Virus record (IMG/VR): IMGVR_UViG_3300024264_000011
Location: 43,376-107,375 of that record
Length of the DNA: 64,000 bases
Strand: one strand, 5' to 3'
DNA from: a virus
Shown piece after piece: positions 43,242-51,816 of the stretch. The stretch's first letter is position 1; each line of letters starts with the position of its first letter. The position numbers and the translations under genes were made by a program. The notes under the pieces are model-generated. The model saw only the letters and a list, made by a program, of their open reading frames with translations. It was not told where the DNA came from and did no database searches.

Positions 43242-44569
43242 TAGTTTGTACCGTCTAAGTTTACTTGTCCTCCAGACACTTCGATATCTGGTAATCTACT
43301 ACCGCCAAACGAGTCTCTTGAGAGCGTAATGTTAGTCCGAAGTTCACTTCTATTTAGAATGGTATGTTTGACGGCAGCTACAATATACCTCCCGCTGATC
43401 CTTTTGTCAATCTTTACGCGATCTGCTTTTTCTTTCTTTGGATCTGGGATTGCAATATTTATAACATTACCTGCACGATTTCTTAAGTCACCAGGAACCG
43501 CAATGTCTAATTGATTATATTCAATGAAATAATATCTATAGAAAGCTTTCTCAAAGTTCTTATTAATATCATCTATATTATTTTTTTCCGAATCATCAAT
43601 GTTCTCCCAGTCACCAAACGTACTAATTGTTGATGGTCTGTAAATAAATCTACTTCCTCTACTCAACATCTGTCCTATACCACCAGCAAGATATGGTTTA
43701 GTTTTTTCTAAGTGAGAACTAGAATCCCAGAACTCATCTGCATTTGTTCTAAAGACTCTATAAGTTGCTCTGTTAACATCGACATAGATAGAGTCATGAC
43801 AAAAAGCACCTCTCCTCAAGTCATCATAGATGTTGAATGCCTTTGGTGATGCATAATTCATAATACGATACTTATCAGCCGCAGTTAATCCTGGTCCAGT
43901 AGTATTACCTGGAAAATATGTATAAGTAAAATCTTTCTGGGGATATTCATCTTGATCCAACAAAGCATCTATAGACTTGTACCTGAATCCTTCAAATGTT
44001 TCATAGAATAAAAATCCAACAGAGTTTTGTTTATATTCGGGTACTGATCTTGTGGATAACCAATTGAAAAGATCAAACACTCTCCAATTTGGCACGTACA
44101 TATCAAATGGGAAAACAGTTTCGTCAGCATCTAATCCTTTTGTGGAGAAACTATCTCTACGTAAAATTTCTGTGATAATTTCGTTAGACTTCTTACCTTC
44201 AATCCTTTCACATATTCTATAGTTTTCGTTTCTTATACCTTCTAGTGAAATGCAACTCAAGACATATGTTTGCGCTCTCTCCTTCATAGATCTACCATCT
44301 ACCATGTAGACATAGAAGTTCAAGTTGTAATGATACCCATCACTGGAAATTATTATTTCAACTCTCTCCTGACCCATAATGGGCAAACTTGAAATTAAGT
44401 TCTGTCCAATATCTTCTATAGCAAGAGTTGCTTGAAGAGCAGAAGATAATATACTTTCATATAAAGTTATTTCTAACACCAAAGCTTTGATGTCGATCTT
44501 TCTTCTTCCATCCATTGAGTAAAGATTTACCTCACGTAGAGAAAAATCTCCTGGGAATTGGTTTGCCAT
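43241..44569 (-). CDS. baseplate hub protein (gp27-like)
   Basis: LYESILS...LPIMGQERV, FLFYETFEGFRYKSID, SGRYIVAAVKH; position upstream of gp5. Confidence 0.7.
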   Translation of the reverse strand: MANQFPGDFSLREVNLYSMDGRRKIDIKALVLEITLYESILSSALQATLAIEDIGQNLISSLPIMGQERVEIIISSDGYHYNLNFYVYMVDGRSMKERAQTYVLSCISLEGIRNENYRICERIEGKKSNEIITEILRRDSFSTKGLDADETVFPFDMYVPNWRVFDLFNWLSTRSVPEYKQNSVGFLFYETFEGFRYKSIDALLDQDEYPQKDFTYTYFPGNTTGPGLTAADKYRIMNYASPKAFNIYDDLRRGAFCHDSIYVDVNRATYRVFRTNADEFWDSSSHLEKTKPYLAGGIGQMLSRGSRFIYRPSTISTFGDWENIDDSEKNNIDDINKNFEKAFYRYYFIEYNQLDIAVPGDLRNRAGNVINIAIPDPKKEKADRVKIDKRISGRYIVAAVKHTILNRSELRTNITLSRDSFGGSRLPDIEVSGGQVNLDGTN

Positions 44570-47313
44570 TATATCCTATTAAGTACTAAAGTTTCTGAAA
44601 GACCTGATGTATTATTTAGATCCATACTTGTAGCGTTCATAACATTATAGTTATCTCCACGTTTAATTGTCGCGATAATTGATTGATTATTGGTTTGTCT
44701 TGATTGAAGAGTCTGTGTAATTGAGAAAGAAGAACTCAATGCAGGCATAGAAGCAGACGATGGTGTTGATGGAGTTATTTGTGCAGCTGGTATTGAATGT
44801 GCAGCAGAAGTTAGTGTGTCAGCAGATAAAGCAGGCATACCTGCCTTCTGGAACATTGTTGACTTCTGTTCTGGTATTGAATGTGCAGCAGAAGTTAGTG
44901 TGTCAGCAGATAAAGCAGGCATACTTGCCTTCTGGAACATTGTTGACTTCTGTTCTAGTGTTAAAGGTGTAGGAGTAACTCCAGGTGTTGCTGATGCAGT
45001 TGCTGATGGTGTAGTTTGTTTCGGAGACTTTTGCAGGTGTTGCAGTACCTGTTGTGCATAATGATATCTTTCTCCTACCTCTCCATATCCCCAGTATTGA
45101 TAAGATGCTTTCTCTAATTGTTGATCAGTAGAATTTGGATCCATGAAAACTTTATATGCTCCAGGATAATAATTCTTCATTTCCCATAGCATCGCATTAA
45201 TCTGTTCGCCGTCAGAAGCTTCTTTAATATTTTTACCTAAATACTTTTCAATCTTACCTAGACGAGCGGGGTCATCAGACCACGATGCCCAGGATACCAA
45301 ACCGCCATTACGTGATGTACCATCTCCCAAAACCTGTCCCCAATCACGTTGACCATTCCAAGATGATTCCTGTTGAATATTGCCAGCCAAATATGCAGCG
45401 CCCTTATCGGGAACTCCAGCATTTCTAAGCATTTCAGCACCTTTATTCATGTTACCTGCTTGTCCAGAAACAGATGAGGTAGTTCCTGATGGAGTGTTAC
45501 CAGCACCACCTCCAGCACCACCGCTAGCGCCACCACCTCCTCCACCACTAGTTGCTGCCTGAGCTGGTCCACCAAATAAAGATCCAAATATTGATCCACC
45601 ACCTATCAATAACATTTCACCAATCTCTTTGAAGACATCCTTACCAAACATTTTGTCGAGATCTTGCTTCTCTTTTTCATTGTTGATCTTATTCGTAATA
45701 GTTTCAGCGTTACCTTGTGTCTTTCCAATATCTTTATCTGCAACAGCTGTTTCCATGCCAAATAATTTCATAGCAGGAGCTAATACACTAATAGCAATTG
45801 GTTTTACAAATCTACCAACAGAACCCATAGCATCAACTACTGCAAATATTGAACCAAGTATATGAGAACCAAGTACCTTGAATGGTAGAGTTAATATCTC
45901 TGGTATCTTTGCAACTGGTATTACTGCCTCAGTACCATGGAGAATTGCAAGGAATCCTTTTTCTGGTCCAGATACTACACCGCCAGAAGCTAACTCAGGA
46001 GTATCTTCTTTCTTTTCTTCTTTCTTACCACCAAATAAACCTTTGACTCCCTTGTAAATTGATACAGCAATCCATTCACCGGCAAAACTTCCGAGTACTC
46101 CTCCTGCAGTAGCAGCTGCCTTACCTAGTAATAAATTACCAATAACTGGTAAAACACTACCAAGTATAGTACCGACAGTTCCTGCTAAAGTTGCACCGAG
46201 AGCACTACCCAACAATGCGCCAGCAGCTCTTACTAAAGCTTCATCAATTGGTGCGCCGAATGCTAGGTCAACTGCAATTCCTATCAGTGGACCTATAGCA
46301 GGTATCTTTCTGACAACTTTACCAACACTCTTAACAACAGTCTTTGTTACAGCAACCATTCCTTTTGTTATTGCTTTACCGAATACTTTTAGTAATACTC
46401 TTTGTATCATTCTACCAAGAGTCTTTCTAAATGCTTTTCCAGCTAACTTTAATATCCCACCAAAAGAATTCTTTAAACCTTTATCACCAAGTTTAAATAT
46501 ACCTCTGAATATTTTAGTAAATTTTTTGCCAAATTTAAATATATTTTTTAGATCTTTTAATATTTTAAGTGGATTTAGTAACCATCGCAAACCAACAACA
46601 CCAAGAACGAGTTTAAAAAACCCACCTATTTTTTCTAACATGCTATCGCCGCCAACAAGCTCGGCAAAACCAGTCAGCAAATTATCTACTACACCAGTTA
46701 CAAACCAATTAAAAAATGATGCAACATGCTTAAAGATAGTAGTGAATGTCTCTACTATCTTTTTATTTTTTGGATCTCCTATCCATGACAAAACATAATA
46801 CTGTAGAAGATCACCAAGCATACCAAAGACATTAAAGGATGCCTTAGCAATACCTTTATTGATTGTTTTGCCCATTGGCATTGGACCACTTTCTTTTTTA
46901 GTAGTCCTTGTCTTTGGTGTTGGTTGTACAGAATCTAAGTATTTTTCGTGTAGTCTTTTCTTCTCACTCTTTACTGTTACTAGTTTCTTAAATACAGATT
47001 CAACTTCAATAAATTTTTCTCTTATCTTAGTGTAATCTCTTTTAGGTTCTGATTCTTTCTTTTCTACCGTACCCTTTTCTGAAGAAACTATCGCACTAGT
47101 ATCTTGCACCGGCACCGGAGTTATTCTTACTATACCGCCACCGACTCCTCCATCTCCAGATTTCTGATTACCAGCAACTCCACTACGAAATGCCCCAACA
47201 TTAATGTTGGACTTCATCTTACCTTTTTTAAATAAAGATTTTCTTTCCTGGGGAGTTAGGTATTCCCCAGTCTCAGAATCAACACCGTGAGCAATTGCGT
47301 TTAAGTCTGACAT
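44569..47313 (-). CDS. hub/tape-measure-like protein with phage tail lysozyme domain
   Basis: Amphipathic helical and Gly-zipper region; LASGGVV..LHGTEAVIP; AAYLAGNIQQES...GLVSW lysozyme-like motif. Confidence 0.7.
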   Translation of the reverse strand: MSDLNAIAHGVDSETGEYLTPQERKSLFKKGKMKSNINVGAFRSGVAGNQKSGDGGVGGGIVRITPVPVQDTSAIVSSEKGTVEKKESEPKRDYTKIREKFIEVESVFKKLVTVKSEKKRLHEKYLDSVQPTPKTRTTKKESGPMPMGKTINKGIAKASFNVFGMLGDLLQYYVLSWIGDPKNKKIVETFTTIFKHVASFFNWFVTGVVDNLLTGFAELVGGDSMLEKIGGFFKLVLGVVGLRWLLNPLKILKDLKNIFKFGKKFTKIFRGIFKLGDKGLKNSFGGILKLAGKAFRKTLGRMIQRVLLKVFGKAITKGMVAVTKTVVKSVGKVVRKIPAIGPLIGIAVDLAFGAPIDEALVRAAGALLGSALGATLAGTVGTILGSVLPVIGNLLLGKAAATAGGVLGSFAGEWIAVSIYKGVKGLFGGKKEEKKEDTPELASGGVVSGPEKGFLAILHGTEAVIPVAKIPEILTLPFKVLGSHILGSIFAVVDAMGSVGRFVKPIAISVLAPAMKLFGMETAVADKDIGKTQGNAETITNKINNEKEKQDLDKMFGKDVFKEIGEMLLIGGGSIFGSLFGGPAQAATSGGGGGGASGGAGGGAGNTPSGTTSSVSGQAGNMNKGAEMLRNAGVPDKGAAYLAGNIQQESSWNGQRDWGQVLGDGTSRNGGLVSWASWSDDPARLGKIEKYLGKNIKEASDGEQINAMLWEMKNYYPGAYKVFMDPNSTDQQLEKASYQYWGYGEVGERYHYAQQVLQHLQKSPKQTTPSATASATPGVTPTPLTLEQKSTMFQKASMPALSADTLTSAAHSIPEQKSTMFQKAGMPALSADTLTSAAHSIPAAQITPSTPSSASMPALSSSFSITQTLQSRQTNNQSIIATIKRGDNYNVMNATSMDLNNTSGLSETLVLNRI
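44787..44956. repeat. 2 x 84-bp in-frame tandem duplication
   Basis: Copies start at 44787 and 44871 with one mismatch; encodes EQKSTMFQKA(S/G)MPALSADTLTSAAHSIP twice. Confidence 0.92.
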
Positions 47314-47317
47314 TTAA

Positions 47318-50035
47318 CTAGAGATTTGTTTTGAAAACTGCCCATAATCCATTGGCAGGTAAAGTCCCACCAAGAGACTGGGTTGTTTGAGTTGTTGATT
47401 GGAATGAAGATTTATCTTGACCTCCACCTAAATCAACAATGGTTGGAGTAGCACTAGAAGATGTTTTAGCTGATGATTGTAACTGTAAACTTTCTTGTTG
47501 CGTTGATTGTAAAGCACTACCAGAAGCTGAAGCAGTGGGAACTATACTAGCTGCAGGATTTTTGTTTTGTTTAAGATCTGTTGCAATATTTGGTGCATTA
47601 ATGTCAGCATTTGGTCTTCTATAAATTTTACCTTGACTACCATAATAATTATTATATCCTTGAGGACTAGCTTCCCAACTAAATGATGCTTTACCAGAAG
47701 AATTGGAAAGAACATTTCCATTAGCAAGAACAACTCCAATATGCGCTTGAGGTGGTGTTTTTCTATCATACATGACCATAACATCACCTGGTTGACGTTG
47801 ATCATATGAAACTTGGGCATAACCAGTACCAATCATATCTTTTTCAGCTGTAGGTACATATAATGATGAACCCCATGGTGGTGTAATTCCTGCTTTCTCA
47901 TATACTTTATTAACTGCCCACACGCAACCATTAGCACCACCATCAGGACCAGAAGCACTAGACATTCCTCTCAAAGATTCAGCGGCCGCTGCGAGACTTG
48001 GAGATGGAGATGATGCAGCAGCCATTTCAGACCAACCAGTTCCATCTTCATTTTTTTGATAAGACTTTCCAGTTTCAGTATTACTATACTGTGTTACTCC
48101 AGCAGCACCTGCATCAGCGTGAGAAGCAAAGGACTGCATTGGTGGTGAACTACTTCCACCTCCACTAGTAACACCAGATCCACTACTAGGAGATCTCAAT
48201 GAAGCCTGCGCTGGTGCAGAAATTAAATTACCCAAGAAATTACCAATACCACCCATCACCTGACCAGCACCACTGAAGAAAGATTGAAATACATTACCCC
48301 CACCTTCTTTCTTTGCGATCTCAACAGACTCTTTAACGTTCTTAATACTTTCCGAGAACTTTTCTAATAGTTTTTCTTTATCAACCTCTTTTATTTCTCT
48401 ATCTTCTCTTGTCTGAGTTTTTAATTGCGTCAATACATTTGTCGGTACACCGAATGTAGATGCAGCCATTCTTATGATAGGTTCTATAATGTTGCCAACA
48501 AATGGAATTTTACTAACAGTTTTTAATATCAATCCAACAATGGCAGTACCAATAATTTTAAATGGCGCAACCATCATATCCATGAATGGTTTCATTGCCT
48601 TAGTTAAGTTCTCAGATATTCCAGCTACATCAACTATTTTTTCTAAAGGATGTACAGTTACACTACCCTGAGTAAGTGATTTATCATCAGTACCTTTAGC
48701 ACCATCTATACCATCAGATCCAGAAGATCCATCAGTACCTTTAGCACCATCTATACCATCAGATCCAGAAGATCCATCAGATCCAGAAGATCCATCAGTA
48801 CCTTTAGCACCATTAGCTCCAGCTGGAGGAGAAACAATACCACCTTCTTTTAATTTTGGCAGTGACTCTGTATCTACTGTCTGTTTATCTCCACCGCCGA
48901 ACCAATTCATTGGATTCAACATGGACATTACACCGCCGCCACCACCTGTTTTCTTTTCTTGTGGTGGTTTTTGTTGAGTCTCTCCTTCCGAAGTAGTAGA
49001 AGTTTCTTCAGTTTCTTCTTTACCAAATCCTAATAATTTTAGTGGATTAAAATTAGATATAATATCACCAACCCATTTACCAAGATTCTCAAACAATCCA
49101 AATGTAATAAAGTTTGCTAGAGCCTTAAAAAGTTCTGGTATAGTTTCAAATAATATTTTTGGTATGTTTAATATATTTTTAAGAAACTCTTCGGGATTAG
49201 TTAACCATTTTAGTGTGATTAAATCCAATAAAGGTGTTAAAAAAGCGCCAAATATTTTCAACGCTGGGCCTATAACAGCAATCATTCTCCCTAACTGACC
49301 ACCAATAAAACTAAAAACTGCACCAAAGAATTTTACTGCACCTTGAAAAAATTCTACGATTCTTTGTACATTCTTTTTATTCTTTGGATCGCCAAACCAA
49401 TCTAATATCTTATATAGAATAAAGTCTTTTACGAAGTCACTTATTAAACCCCAGATTCCTTTAACTGCCTTTTTAGCACCTTTTACTATAGGACTTTCTG
49501 GTTTTTTTCTAGCTCTTCTTACTCTATCTTCTTCTTGTTTTTCTTGTTCTGCATCTCTAGATGCTCTTTCTTTCTCTCTTGATGCAGAAAGAATTCTATC
49601 CTTTATATTTTTCTGTTCTTCCTCTTCAATACTTATTATCTGTTCCAGTAAAGATTTTATATTATCTAGAGATGAAATAATTGCCGCATCTCCGTCATCA
49701 CCACTACTAGATTTTTTTGCTACTACTGTTTCACTCTTTGGTGCAGGAACAATTGCTGACGTATTAATGGCAGGAACTAGAGCACCTCCCCTAGGAACAA
49801 TTGCTCCTCCACCACCACCTTTAACTGTACCCGATTCCCCTTCTCTCAATAAGGATTTCATCTTACCTTTTCTACCACCAAGAGTTCTCTTTACAGCACC
49901 TCTTGCTGCTCCTCGAACACCTTCTCTTATACCACCAGTTATTGTCTGTTTAGCAGCACCCATCGCTGCTGCCCTACCTCCGGCGAGAGCCCCTTTAGCA
50001 AATATTCCTCCTAGTGCGGCGAGTGGTGCTGGCAT
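47318..50035 (-). CDS. hub/tape-measure-like protein with NlpC/P60-CHAP-type peptidase domain
   Basis: Helical N-terminal half; C-terminal GCVWAV...PGDVMV..HIGVV..SNSS (Cys/His); ATG 50035 just after the gp51-like stop. Confidence 0.7.
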   Translation of the reverse strand: MPAPLAALGGIFAKGALAGGRAAAMGAAKQTITGGIREGVRGAARGAVKRTLGGRKGKMKSLLREGESGTVKGGGGGAIVPRGGALVPAINTSAIVPAPKSETVVAKKSSSGDDGDAAIISSLDNIKSLLEQIISIEEEEQKNIKDRILSASREKERASRDAEQEKQEEDRVRRARKKPESPIVKGAKKAVKGIWGLISDFVKDFILYKILDWFGDPKNKKNVQRIVEFFQGAVKFFGAVFSFIGGQLGRMIAVIGPALKIFGAFLTPLLDLITLKWLTNPEEFLKNILNIPKILFETIPELFKALANFITFGLFENLGKWVGDIISNFNPLKLLGFGKEETEETSTTSEGETQQKPPQEKKTGGGGGVMSMLNPMNWFGGGDKQTVDTESLPKLKEGGIVSPPAGANGAKGTDGSSGSDGSSGSDGIDGAKGTDGSSGSDGIDGAKGTDDKSLTQGSVTVHPLEKIVDVAGISENLTKAMKPFMDMMVAPFKIIGTAIVGLILKTVSKIPFVGNIIEPIIRMAASTFGVPTNVLTQLKTQTREDREIKEVDKEKLLEKFSESIKNVKESVEIAKKEGGGNVFQSFFSGAGQVMGGIGNFLGNLISAPAQASLRSPSSGSGVTSGGGSSSPPMQSFASHADAGAAGVTQYSNTETGKSYQKNEDGTGWSEMAAASSPSPSLAAAAESLRGMSSASGPDGGANGCVWAVNKVYEKAGITPPWGSSLYVPTAEKDMIGTGYAQVSYDQRQPGDVMVMYDRKTPPQAHIGVVLANGNVLSNSSGKASFSWEASPQGYNNYYGSQGKIYRRPNADINAPNIATDLKQNKNPAASIVPTASASGSALQSTQQESLQLQSSAKTSSSATPTIVDLGGGQDKSSFQSTTQTTQSLGGTLPANGLWAVFKTNL
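48685..48813. repeat. 45/18-bp tandem repeats encoding a collagen-like Gly-X-Y run
   Basis: Two exact 45-bp units plus partial units; GAKGTDGSSGSDGID. Confidence 0.9.
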
Positions 50036-50036
50036 A

Positions 50037-50165
50037 TTACTGTTGATTCTTTTGACGTTCGTTTTCTTCCTTAATGTATTCAACCAACATCGTCACATAA
50101 ATCTCTCGTTCCCAAGGAATCATATTTTCTAACTCAGTTAAACTGTACTTATGATGTTGCATCAT
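50037..50165 (-). CDS. gp51: gp51-like baseplate hub assembly chaperone (probably the C-terminal part of a frameshift product)
   Basis: Hand-translated MMQHHKYSLTELENMIPWEREIYVTMLVEYIKEEN; the frame stays open upstream into the gp26 3' end. Confidence 0.75.
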   Translation of the reverse strand: MMQHHKYSLTELENMIPWEREIYVTMLVEYIKEENERQKNQQ

Positions 50166-50212
50166 TGCAAAGTTTACTCTGAAGAAATTTTCTAGAGACT
50201 CATGTGATAGGG

Positions 50213-50929
50213 CTACGCGAAAAAACTTGCTAATCCCTCAATAACAACCTCACTTTCAACTTTAGTATTTGGATTTTTTACCGTAACTGTATGTGATAAT
50301 TTAGGCATGGTCTCGAAGAATTTCTGGATACTAATGAACTGTTTAGTGTCCATACCCTCAAGAAATTCTAAGATCTCTTTCTTACTAAAGTTTGAAGATT
50401 CATATACTTCTTCACCTTCTACAATCTGATCAATACACATCGATGCAATTTCAAATACATCATCAACCTCAGACGTAGATTCTTTCATGTTGTTTTTAAT
50501 AAACAGATCCATACTTGGATACTTCATGACAACAGAGACATCATCATTCATTTTAATGATGTTATCATGATCATCAGACTTCTTGACTTGGATGTCATCA
50601 AGATCAATAACTACTGGAACTGTTGACTCGCCATCATCAGGACAAATAATATTTAACTCAACAGTTTCACCAACAGATTTACCTCTAATGTTTAGAAAAA
50701 TATACTCAATATCAAATAACGAAAGAGTATCAACTTTAAATCTAGAAGTCAAAATACAGTTAGAAAGAATTGTCTTCACAGCATTCGCCATCTGTTTTTC
50801 ATCTTCAGTTTCCATGGCAAGAAGAAGAATTTTTTCTTCTTTCACTAGGAAAGGTCTATACTTAATCTTTTTACCAGTTGAAGGAACAACCAACTCATAT
50901 GTAGGCGCAGAAAGCTTTGGTAAAGGCAT
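50213..50929 (-). CDS. gp26: baseplate hub subunit/assembly chaperone gp26
   Basis: MPLPKLSAPTYEL..YRPFLVKEEKILL..FDIEYIFLNIRGKSVGE..EGLASFF. Confidence 0.85.
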   Translation of the reverse strand: MPLPKLSAPTYELVVPSTGKKIKYRPFLVKEEKILLLAMETEDEKQMANAVKTILSNCILTSRFKVDTLSLFDIEYIFLNIRGKSVGETVELNIICPDDGESTVPVVIDLDDIQVKKSDDHDNIIKMNDDVSVVMKYPSMDLFIKNNMKESTSEVDDVFEIASMCIDQIVEGEEVYESSNFSKKEILEFLEGMDTKQFISIQKFFETMPKLSHTVTVKNPNTKVESEVVIEGLASFFA

Positions 50930-50965
50930 AATAACTCCTTATAATATAGGAATACTAACTCAAAT

Positions 50966-50973
50966 TATTTATA
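50966..50973 (-). promoter_or_regulatory. T4-type late promoter TATAAATA
   Basis: Exact octamer upstream of gp26 (AAGGAG SD follows). Confidence 0.78.
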
Positions 50974-50976
50974 GAC

Positions 50977-51816
50977 CTAGAATAGATTAAAAATGTCAAA
51001 CGCTCTGTCACCAGTGCCATCATTAACTGTGTCTATCCAATTGGTTGCTCTACCAGCGTTAAGAGCCGTAGTTGTATAAGTTTCATATTCAAAACCAACT
51101 GATAGTTTAGATAACTCGGAAGTTCCAGAGTTCAAAGCAATAGAAGAAATATTTGCTGGAAAAGCTTTAAATAACTTGACAGCATAAACTGGTATTGCTT
51201 TGTAAAATTTTGATCCTTGAACCGAAGAAGTAGAATCTGGAATAATATCTCTTAGAGAAAATGAAGGTTTCTCTCTCACATTACTATTCTTATCACTACT
51301 CATTGCTCTTTCATATTTTATTATAGTAATGTCAATTGCATAATCATCTCTATATCTAGTTCTAAATTTATTACGTGTGGAGACATCTCTTAATTGTAAG
51401 ATATCTGCTATATTATTACCACTATTCATATCTAAACTATAACCATAAATCCAGTTAGTCCATACATCAAAGATACTTTTAATAGTAGCATCGGCATCCA
51501 TGATAAATGAAAATGTTGCTTCACTAAAAACTGCACCGTATACATACTTCAGAGTAGGAGTATTAGTAACTCTATACTCTGATGTCGATAATTGCAAACC
51601 AGGTAGAGTTGCTTCATCAGTATATAATCGCATCAAATTGCGATTTGATTTCAAGTCAATTAAATTATTGGCAACTAATTGATTGTGCAATGGTACAGCT
51701 TCAGTAATCTCAAATTTAATATCATAAAAATTGTTTAGACTGAAACCATATTTTTGAACTGCGCTCTTAAATTCAGCGTAGTTCGACATTTCTTCTTCTA
51801 TTCCTTTAATACTCAT
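50977..51816 (-). CDS. tail tube initiator gp54-like (tube-protein fold)
   Basis: EATLPG, FDVWTNWI, LFKAFPANISSIAL..LSVGFEYE motifs. Confidence 0.65.
   Translation of the reverse strand: MSIKGIEEEMSNYAEFKSAVQKYGFSLNNFYDIKFEITEAVPLHNQLVANNLIDLKSNRNLMRLYTDEATLPGLQLSTSEYRVTNTPTLKYVYGAVFSEATFSFIMDADATIKSIFDVWTNWIYGYSLDMNSGNNIADILQLRDVSTRNKFRTRYRDDYAIDITIIKYERAMSSDKNSNVREKPSFSLRDIIPDSTSSVQGSKFYKAIPVYAVKLFKAFPANISSIALNSGTSELSKLSVGFEYETYTTTALNAGRATNWIDTVNDGTGDRAFDIFNLF

Follow-up and report, generated by a model that had tools for sequence, protein, structure and literature searches.

Long-tailed phages carry a conserved -1 ribosomal frameshift in their tail assembly chaperone genes (Xu, Hendrix and Duda, 2004; reviewed in PMC5009743), and the review names T4 as the exception to this rule. 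In T4, hub assembly needs gp51, which the particle itself does not contain (Leiman et al., 2010, PMC3004832). According to the papers that cite it, the work of Vladimirov, Gautam and Davidson (Virology 2022;566:9-15, pmid 34826709) treats gp26 and gp51 as a chaperone pair, TAC-N/TAC-NC. The PRFect paper refers to it for the statement that T4, in place of a frameshift, has one short gene and one long fusion gene (PMC10274946), and the phage Adele paper for poly-T slippery sequences in TAC-N genes of T4-like phages, where they serve as -1 signals (PMC12846349). As far as these citations reach, the frameshift principle in T4-like phages was apparently already published in 2022, so that the locus described here is one more example of it and, taken singly, adds little. 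A full-text literature search on gp26, gp51 and frameshift terms returned no description of this particular slip.

The window, by which the whole analysed stretch of 64,000 nt is meant, covers positions 43,376 to 107,375 of the IMG/VR record IMGVR_UViG_3300024264_000011, a 107-kb virus record with an estimated completeness of 58%. It belongs to a T4-like cyanophage that, among named phages, comes closest to cyanophages of the same type such as S-SKS1 and P-SSM2, with about 67% DNA identity across the gp26 region. The phage is set apart from the known T4-like phages in being uncultured and in having a gp26 that is at most 87% identical to that of any locus compared. The best explanation of its gp26 locus, and in our judgment a highly probable one, is a programmed -1 ribosomal frameshift in a tail (baseplate-hub) assembly chaperone gene.

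Layout of the gp26 region

The gp26-like gene lies on the minus strand (50213..50929) and encodes in the zero frame a protein of 238 aa, the presumed short chaperone (TAC-N), which ends at the stop TAG 50215..50213. The protein matches PF12322 (T4_baseplate) over the whole length of the profile (positions 2-219 of 219, E 1.7e-73) and phrog_150 over profile positions 5-232 (E 1.9e-80). A ribosome-binding site, AAGGAG, is found 5 nt ahead of the ATG (50935..50940, minus), and just 5' of the gene there is an exact match to the T4 late-promoter-like box TATAAATA (50966..50973, minus); with 7 occurrences in the window, a number not above chance, this box may serve as a positional hint only.

At its 3' end the gene reads GAG GGA TTA GCA AGT TTT TTC GCG TAG, whereby the T run forms the slippery heptamer T_TTT_TTC in X_XXY_YYZ phase (50219..50225, minus), and GAGG, a Shine-Dalgarno-like candidate stimulator, is placed 10 nt 5' of it (50236..50239, minus). 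C 50219 would be read twice in a slip: the -1 frame that begins with it reads RVALSHESLENFFRVNFAMMQHH... and stays open for 60 codons up to TAA 50039..50037. This extension (50037..50219, minus; TAC-C, or 'gp51' in relatives) matches phrog_634 with an E of 5.3e-29. Joined to gp26 codons 1-237, the 60 codons give a conceptual long form of 297 aa with the junction peptide ...EGLASFFR/VALSHESLENFFR. The first ATG of the -1 frame is codon 19 (50163..50165, minus), from which a product of 42 aa would begin, and upstream of it the window's -1 frame has no ATG, GTG or TTG. Direct re-reading reproduced the elements of the original prediction, namely the 3' end of gp26 with its phased heptamer, the GAGG 10 nt upstream, the -1 frame open to 50037, the lengths of 238 and 297 aa and the ATG at 50165. 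A single TTTTTTC is by itself not significant, the window being AT-rich and containing 29 occurrences against 26.3 expected; the heptamer owes its significance to an invariance, phase and context that hold across relatives, and not to a motif count alone.

On the minus strand, gp26 is preceded by genes for a gp4-like head closure protein, a gp2-like DNA end protector and a tail-tube-family protein, and is followed, after the -1 extension, by two large Gly-rich proteins of 921 and 914 aa, which are paralogous and have lysin-like parts. The product of the upstream tail-tube gene (T4 gp54-like, 279 aa; 50977..51816, minus) matches Pfam Phage_TTP_2 (E 3e-12) and phrog_45 'tail tube' (E 3.8e-26), the latter PHROG being shared with T4 gp54. 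A complex prediction for this tube protein and the 60-aa extension scored 0.00, which speaks neither for nor against an interaction.

The 921-aa gene (47318..50035, minus), whose likely start is ATG 50035, one base past the TAA of the extension, is a plausible candidate for the tape measure gene, and the corresponding gene in the Caulobacter Cr30 record is annotated as such. Its product has collagen-like repeats (Pfam; GxxGxx at about residues 420-470) and a lysin-like C-terminal part; its PHROG matches are to endolysin-like and unknown families, and the PHROG search gave no match to phrog_1283 of T4 gp29. The 914-aa ORF, which does not match T4 gp29 either, contains a Phage_lysozyme2 domain as well as a sequence repeated in tandem, in two nearly perfect copies (EQKSTMFQKA.MPALSADTLTSAAHSIP). 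The two adjacent ORFs (44569-50035, minus) have the N-terminal matches phrog_1200, 2588, 17500 and 17778 in common. The extension stops and the next gene starts within TAAtATG (50033-50039, minus), and in P-SSM2 stop and start overlap as ATGGCTGA. The TAAtATG arrangement suggests that the downstream large gene is translationally coupled to the frameshifted frame and not to the zero frame of gp26.

Conservation of the heptamer and of the -1 frame

The slippery site was compared in 179 gp26-type ORFs complete at the 3' end, which came from the window, from GenBank phage records and from IMG/VR loci collected with the window's gp26 and with distant homologues. The GenBank records, about ten, were those of P-SSM2, Sinorhizobium phiM19, Caulobacter Cr30, Stenotrophomonas BUCT608, Citrobacter Ci1 and Aeromonas Aszh-1, and further of Vibrio ValKK3, T4, Acinetobacter Octan, RB16, KFS-EC and 44RR. 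The gp26 identity to the window ranged from 22 to 87%, and the census counts, which are not phylogenetically independent, nevertheless reach down to identities of 22-30%.

An in-phase T_TTT_TTY is present at the same profile position in 172 of the 179 ORFs (156 with C and 16 with T at the last position), and the T4-like phages bearing it infect cyanobacteria, Vibrio, Aeromonas, Citrobacter, Caulobacter, Rhizobium and Stenotrophomonas. The gp26 stop follows 0-8 codons past the heptamer, at a distance of exactly one codon in 135 loci. All 142 non-identical contexts read NNT TTT TTY: the codon before Phe-Phe always ends in T although its residue varies (S, N, D, A, T, H; background T3 0.31-0.82), and the first Phe is TTT without exception against a background of 0.667, while the second is TTC in 132 contexts against a background of 0.333. 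Other Phe-Phe pairs within the same ORFs form the heptamer in only 4 of 136 cases, and the Gly and Leu codons a few positions upstream of it use every synonym. Overall, the canonical X_XXY_YYZ heptamer is kept among the relatives beyond coding need; two of the checks proposed with the original prediction, conservation of TTTTTTY against synonymous drift and an invariant -1 offset across the heptamer loci, came out in its favor.

Six of the seven ORFs lacking the heptamer are T4-type loci with a separate full-length gene 51. The seventh, the IMG/VR locus L185, was considered as an exception to the heptamer rule and discarded: it has five instead of six T in the slippery run (1940-1960) compared to L184 and L084 of the BUCT608 group, from which it otherwise differs by one base substitution over 181 aligned bases, so that its gp26 continues in the third frame as an ORF of 281 aa. 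The loss of one T compared to L184 and BUCT608 is most likely a homopolymer sequencing error or a mutant.

A T run could also act during transcription, if the RNA polymerase added an extra U on it and part of the mRNAs then contained the fusion as a single frame. The strict X_XXY_YYZ phase is in line with tandem re-pairing of tRNAs instead, and six T are short for efficient polymerase slippage. The prevalence of C at position 7, although TTT is the preferred Phe codon, is the opposite of what selection for run length would produce; it shortens the homopolymer against the codon bias and thus argues for tandem tRNA slippage over polymerase slippage. These points outweigh what speaks for a transcriptional origin, namely that the site is a run of one base, six T long and 7-8 T in 16 loci, that a single T in this run separates L185 from its identical relatives and that T runs are known slippage and indel sites (PMC4066793). 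Moreover, no inserted base is seen at the site in the contigs from three RNA libraries that span it, a weak argument since contigs hide rare variants. All in all, slippage of the polymerase appears improbable as the source of the fusion.

Beyond the heptamer, the -1 frame is open in all 172 loci for 56-73 codons, making up 114 distinct peptides, and no stop separates the slip site from the MQHH motif in any of them. The mean column entropy for codons 1-17 of this frame is 1.02/0.79/1.47 at codon positions 1/2/3, and four residues situated ahead of the Met at codon 18/19 (H, L, N and F) reach a conservation of 95% or more; the amino-acid conservation upstream of the first Met, expected from the original prediction, was therefore found. 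To judge from this substitution pattern, the -1 frame evolves as coding sequence. The AF2 model of the 60-aa extension (pLDDT 80) has three helices, at residues 9-23, 27-31 and 35-59, and since ATG 50165 lies within the first of them, a product begun there would lose most of helix 1. In RNA-library contigs of a 97%-identical relative there is no substitution over 49998-50233, across the whole -1 extension, and the flanks have about one difference per 40 bases.

In part of the sequences, the conserved residues are out of reach of a start codon. Among 124 gaplessly aligned sequences, 56 have no ATG in -1 codons 0-17, and 28 distinct ones have no ATG, GTG or TTG ahead of the conserved residues (codons 0-17). 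In several sequences, e.g., Aeromonas Aszh-1 and the loci L012, L036, L042, L129 and L148, translation could not begin before codon 31-32, which lies within the core motif, and the -1 frame of L043 is devoid of any ATG. This bears directly on the view that nothing is recoded here, with gp26 and an independent small protein made separately and the T run kept for Phe-Phe and a T-rich codon preference. The small protein would then have 42 aa from ATG 50165 in the window and about 57 aa from a stop-adjacent ATG elsewhere. Public records indeed annotate two separate genes, and an ATG stands three codons past the slip site in 56 of the 124 sequences (in the window, at codon 19). However, the residues conserved to at least 95% lie upstream of any start codon in 28-56 of the 124, a start at ATG 50165 would cut the predicted helix 9-23, and none of the 56 ATG-bearing sequences has a Shine-Dalgarno-like 4-mer 4-16 nt upstream. 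Codon bias cannot yield NNT and TTT in 142 of 142 contexts each, and it is just in the lineages with a full-length gp51 gene that Phe-Phe and the T run decay. Separate synthesis as the whole explanation is very improbable; the codon-3 ATG of about half of the lineages could additionally give rise to a free small protein beside the fusion.

The least credible alternative is termination-reinitiation or a non-canonical start (e.g., CTA or GTA beside the gp26 stop) that would release a free 57-60-aa protein and no fusion: the conserved -1 peptide does begin within 0-1 codons of the gp26 stop in 155 of 172 loci, a geometry suited to coupling, but the invariant phased heptamer is left unexplained, six loci have the stop 8 codons downstream with the conserved peptide still starting at the heptamer, the codon at the 'Met' position is CTC, CTG, CTA or CTT in 63 of 124 sequences, and T4 gp51 shows that both parts are meant as one chain.

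Proposed slip mechanism and its stimulators

With a programmed -1 frameshift, most ribosomes would read gp26 to the TAG and release the 238-aa short form (TAC-N). A minority would slip back by one base with two tRNA-Phe on T_TTT_TTC (50225..50219), re-read C 50219 and go on for 60 codons in the -1 frame, giving the 297-aa long form (TAC-NC), whose additional domain, predicted to consist of three helices, would be the small 'gp51' of the databases. The upstream GAGG, held by synonymous codon choice, may act as a stimulator as in dnaX, by pairing with the tail of the 16S rRNA. From the conserved signal and the homologies we infer that slippage occurs, and the slip rate, the role of the GAGG and the binding partners of the two forms are to be understood in the same conditional sense.

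A heptamer of the X_XXY_YYZ type and a Shine-Dalgarno-like element about 10 nt upstream of it are features that the window has in common with E. coli dnaX. In dnaX a downstream hairpin is also needed, and the shifted frame ends almost at once. In contrast, the window shows no conserved hairpin, and its shifted frame adds a 60-aa domain. RNAalifold on the 124 gaplessly aligned sequences found no consensus pairs downstream of the heptamer (energy 0.0), and the window sequence alone has no stem within 40 nt of the heptamer; with no conserved downstream RNA structure, the classical 3' stimulator is missing. Of the -1 motifs whose efficiency was measured in E. coli, U_UU.U_UU.Y and H_HH.U_UU.Y belong to the best (PMC4066793).

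As for the upstream element, the Glu codon at the GAGG site is GAG in 91 of 117 contexts compared to a background of 27.8%, and where it is GAA, the next Gly codon is GGG in 16 of 26 cases compared to 5%. A Shine-Dalgarno-like element at about 10 nt is thus present, and this codon choice backs it as a candidate stimulator. Part of its conservation is protein-driven because GAGG overlaps a conserved Glu-Gly, which is Arg-Gly in T4, where there is no frameshift. A more far-reaching idea, rather doubtful at present, is that the slip is tuned solely by the upstream GAGG/AGGG, with no downstream structure, and that the lineages with an ATG at codon 3 also make a free 57-aa C-domain. If true, and if outside the 2022 paper, such upstream-only tuning together with a third product would add a new point to what is known of the control of the chaperone ratio. 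That paper may or may not contain the synonymous codon bias behind GAGG, the absent 3' structure and the share of start-less lineages.

Comparison with lambda-type chaperones and T4 gp26/gp51

The AF2 model of gp26 (pLDDT 88) gave its three best structural matches on residues 1-96 in VIA-align. Residues 1-91 align with the HK97 tail assembly chaperone 2ob9_B (Z 7.4, rmsd 4.1, 85 of 104 residues), and the other top matches are 3fgx_B (Z 7.8) and YqbN 3klu_A (Z 7.2), with the remaining ones at 5.3 or less. Foldseek gave 2ob9_B its highest probability, 0.41, and found no match to the gp26 model in the PDB at E 0.001 or better. The gp26 profile searched against the sequences of solved structures gave nothing below E 0.29, and a Pfam scan of gp26 at E up to 10 gave no tail-chaperone family. 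We assign a tail-assembly-chaperone fold to the N-terminal domain of gp26 with moderate confidence, as the model-based Z values stay below 8, in a range where chance arrangements occur.

Together, fold match and gene order suggest that the pair is the functional counterpart of lambda gpG/gpGT. The pair stands after a tube-family gene and before a large Gly-rich protein, a candidate tape measure, and the N-domain of gp26 is similar in fold to the HK97 chaperone. Unlike in lambda, there is no detectable sequence similarity to gpG/gpGT, the short form of the window is larger (238 aa, with a second domain) and the T4 homologues act in hub assembly. The slippery motif of lambda is G_GGA_AAG, whereas the window has T_TTT_TTC.

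The relation to T4 rests on direct sequence homology. PF12322 covers residues 1-206 of T4 gp26 and residues 1-201 of T4 gp51, and the long form would carry a gp51-type C-terminal extension directly after this domain. Within phrog_150, positions 5-232 are taken up by the window's gp26 and 235-278 by its -1 peptide (E 3.4e-6), compared to 14-235 for T4 gp26 and 13-280 for T4 gp51. A profile of 84 conceptual fusions aligns with T4 gp51 residues 65-246 in one stretch across the junction, and T4 gp26 ends there. The original naming of the -1 ORF as gp51-like therefore holds as regards homology, but the ORF corresponds only to the C-terminal extension of T4 gp51 and not to the whole protein. T4 genes 26 and 51 are separate genes, as had been stated at the outset, and T4 gp51 is a gp26 paralogue plus the extension in one frame. 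Moreover, the central claim of the original prediction, a frameshifted chaperone of the lambda G/GT type, is supported by the near-universal heptamer, by the open -1 frame and by this colinearity with T4 gp51. By homology, the short and long forms would correspond to the T4 hub-assembly chaperones gp26 and gp51, respectively, and, by analogy with T4 gp51, the pair would be required for tail assembly and absent from virions. The GenBank record of Octan labels gp26, gp51 and gp28 'tape measure protein assembly chaperone'.

The T4-type phages offer a natural control. T4 gene 51 is a separate, divergently transcribed gene for 249 aa, and T4 gene 26, for 208 aa and followed by gene 25, ends GAG TTC TTT GAG TTA CTA TAA, that is, with Phe-Phe but without the slippery run. 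T4, Octan, RB16, KFS-EC and 44RR all have a full-length gp51 together with a gp26 that lacks the heptamer and usually also Phe-Phe. There is one PF12322 copy in P-SSM2, phiM19, Ci1, ValKK3 and the window's record, and there are two in T4. In RB16 (L194:710-3287), genes 48, 54, 51, 26 and 25 follow one another on the same strand, and full-length gp51 immediately precedes a 185-aa gp26, a layout that looks like an intermediate between the frameshift type and the divergent 26/51 pair of T4. The gp26 of proteobacterial T4-like phages and of T4 keeps a Cys pair and CP(K/E)CG before Phe-Phe (alignment A1, columns about 110-150 and 285-295), a zinc-ribbon-like pattern whose cysteines are lost in the cyanophage proteins, including that of the window.

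These comparisons explain the exceptional status of T4: the lineages of the T4, RB49, RB43, 44RR and Acinetobacter type replaced the frameshift by gene duplication (gp26 + gp51), and the T4-like phages outside them carry the frameshift. Hundreds of cyanophage and vibriophage records annotate a free-standing small 'gp51' or 'hypothetical protein' in place of a frameshift product of the 297-aa type. The pair described by Vladimirov et al. (2022), as far as the citing papers convey it, belongs to the same family as that of the window (PF12322, phrog_150/634), and the same picture was reached here independently. Set against T4 itself, the window has one gene with a slippery site where T4 has two divergent paralogous genes, with no such site in gene 26; yet T4 gp26 can be aligned to the zero-frame product, with the same Phe-Phe at its end, and T4 gp51 to the fusion.
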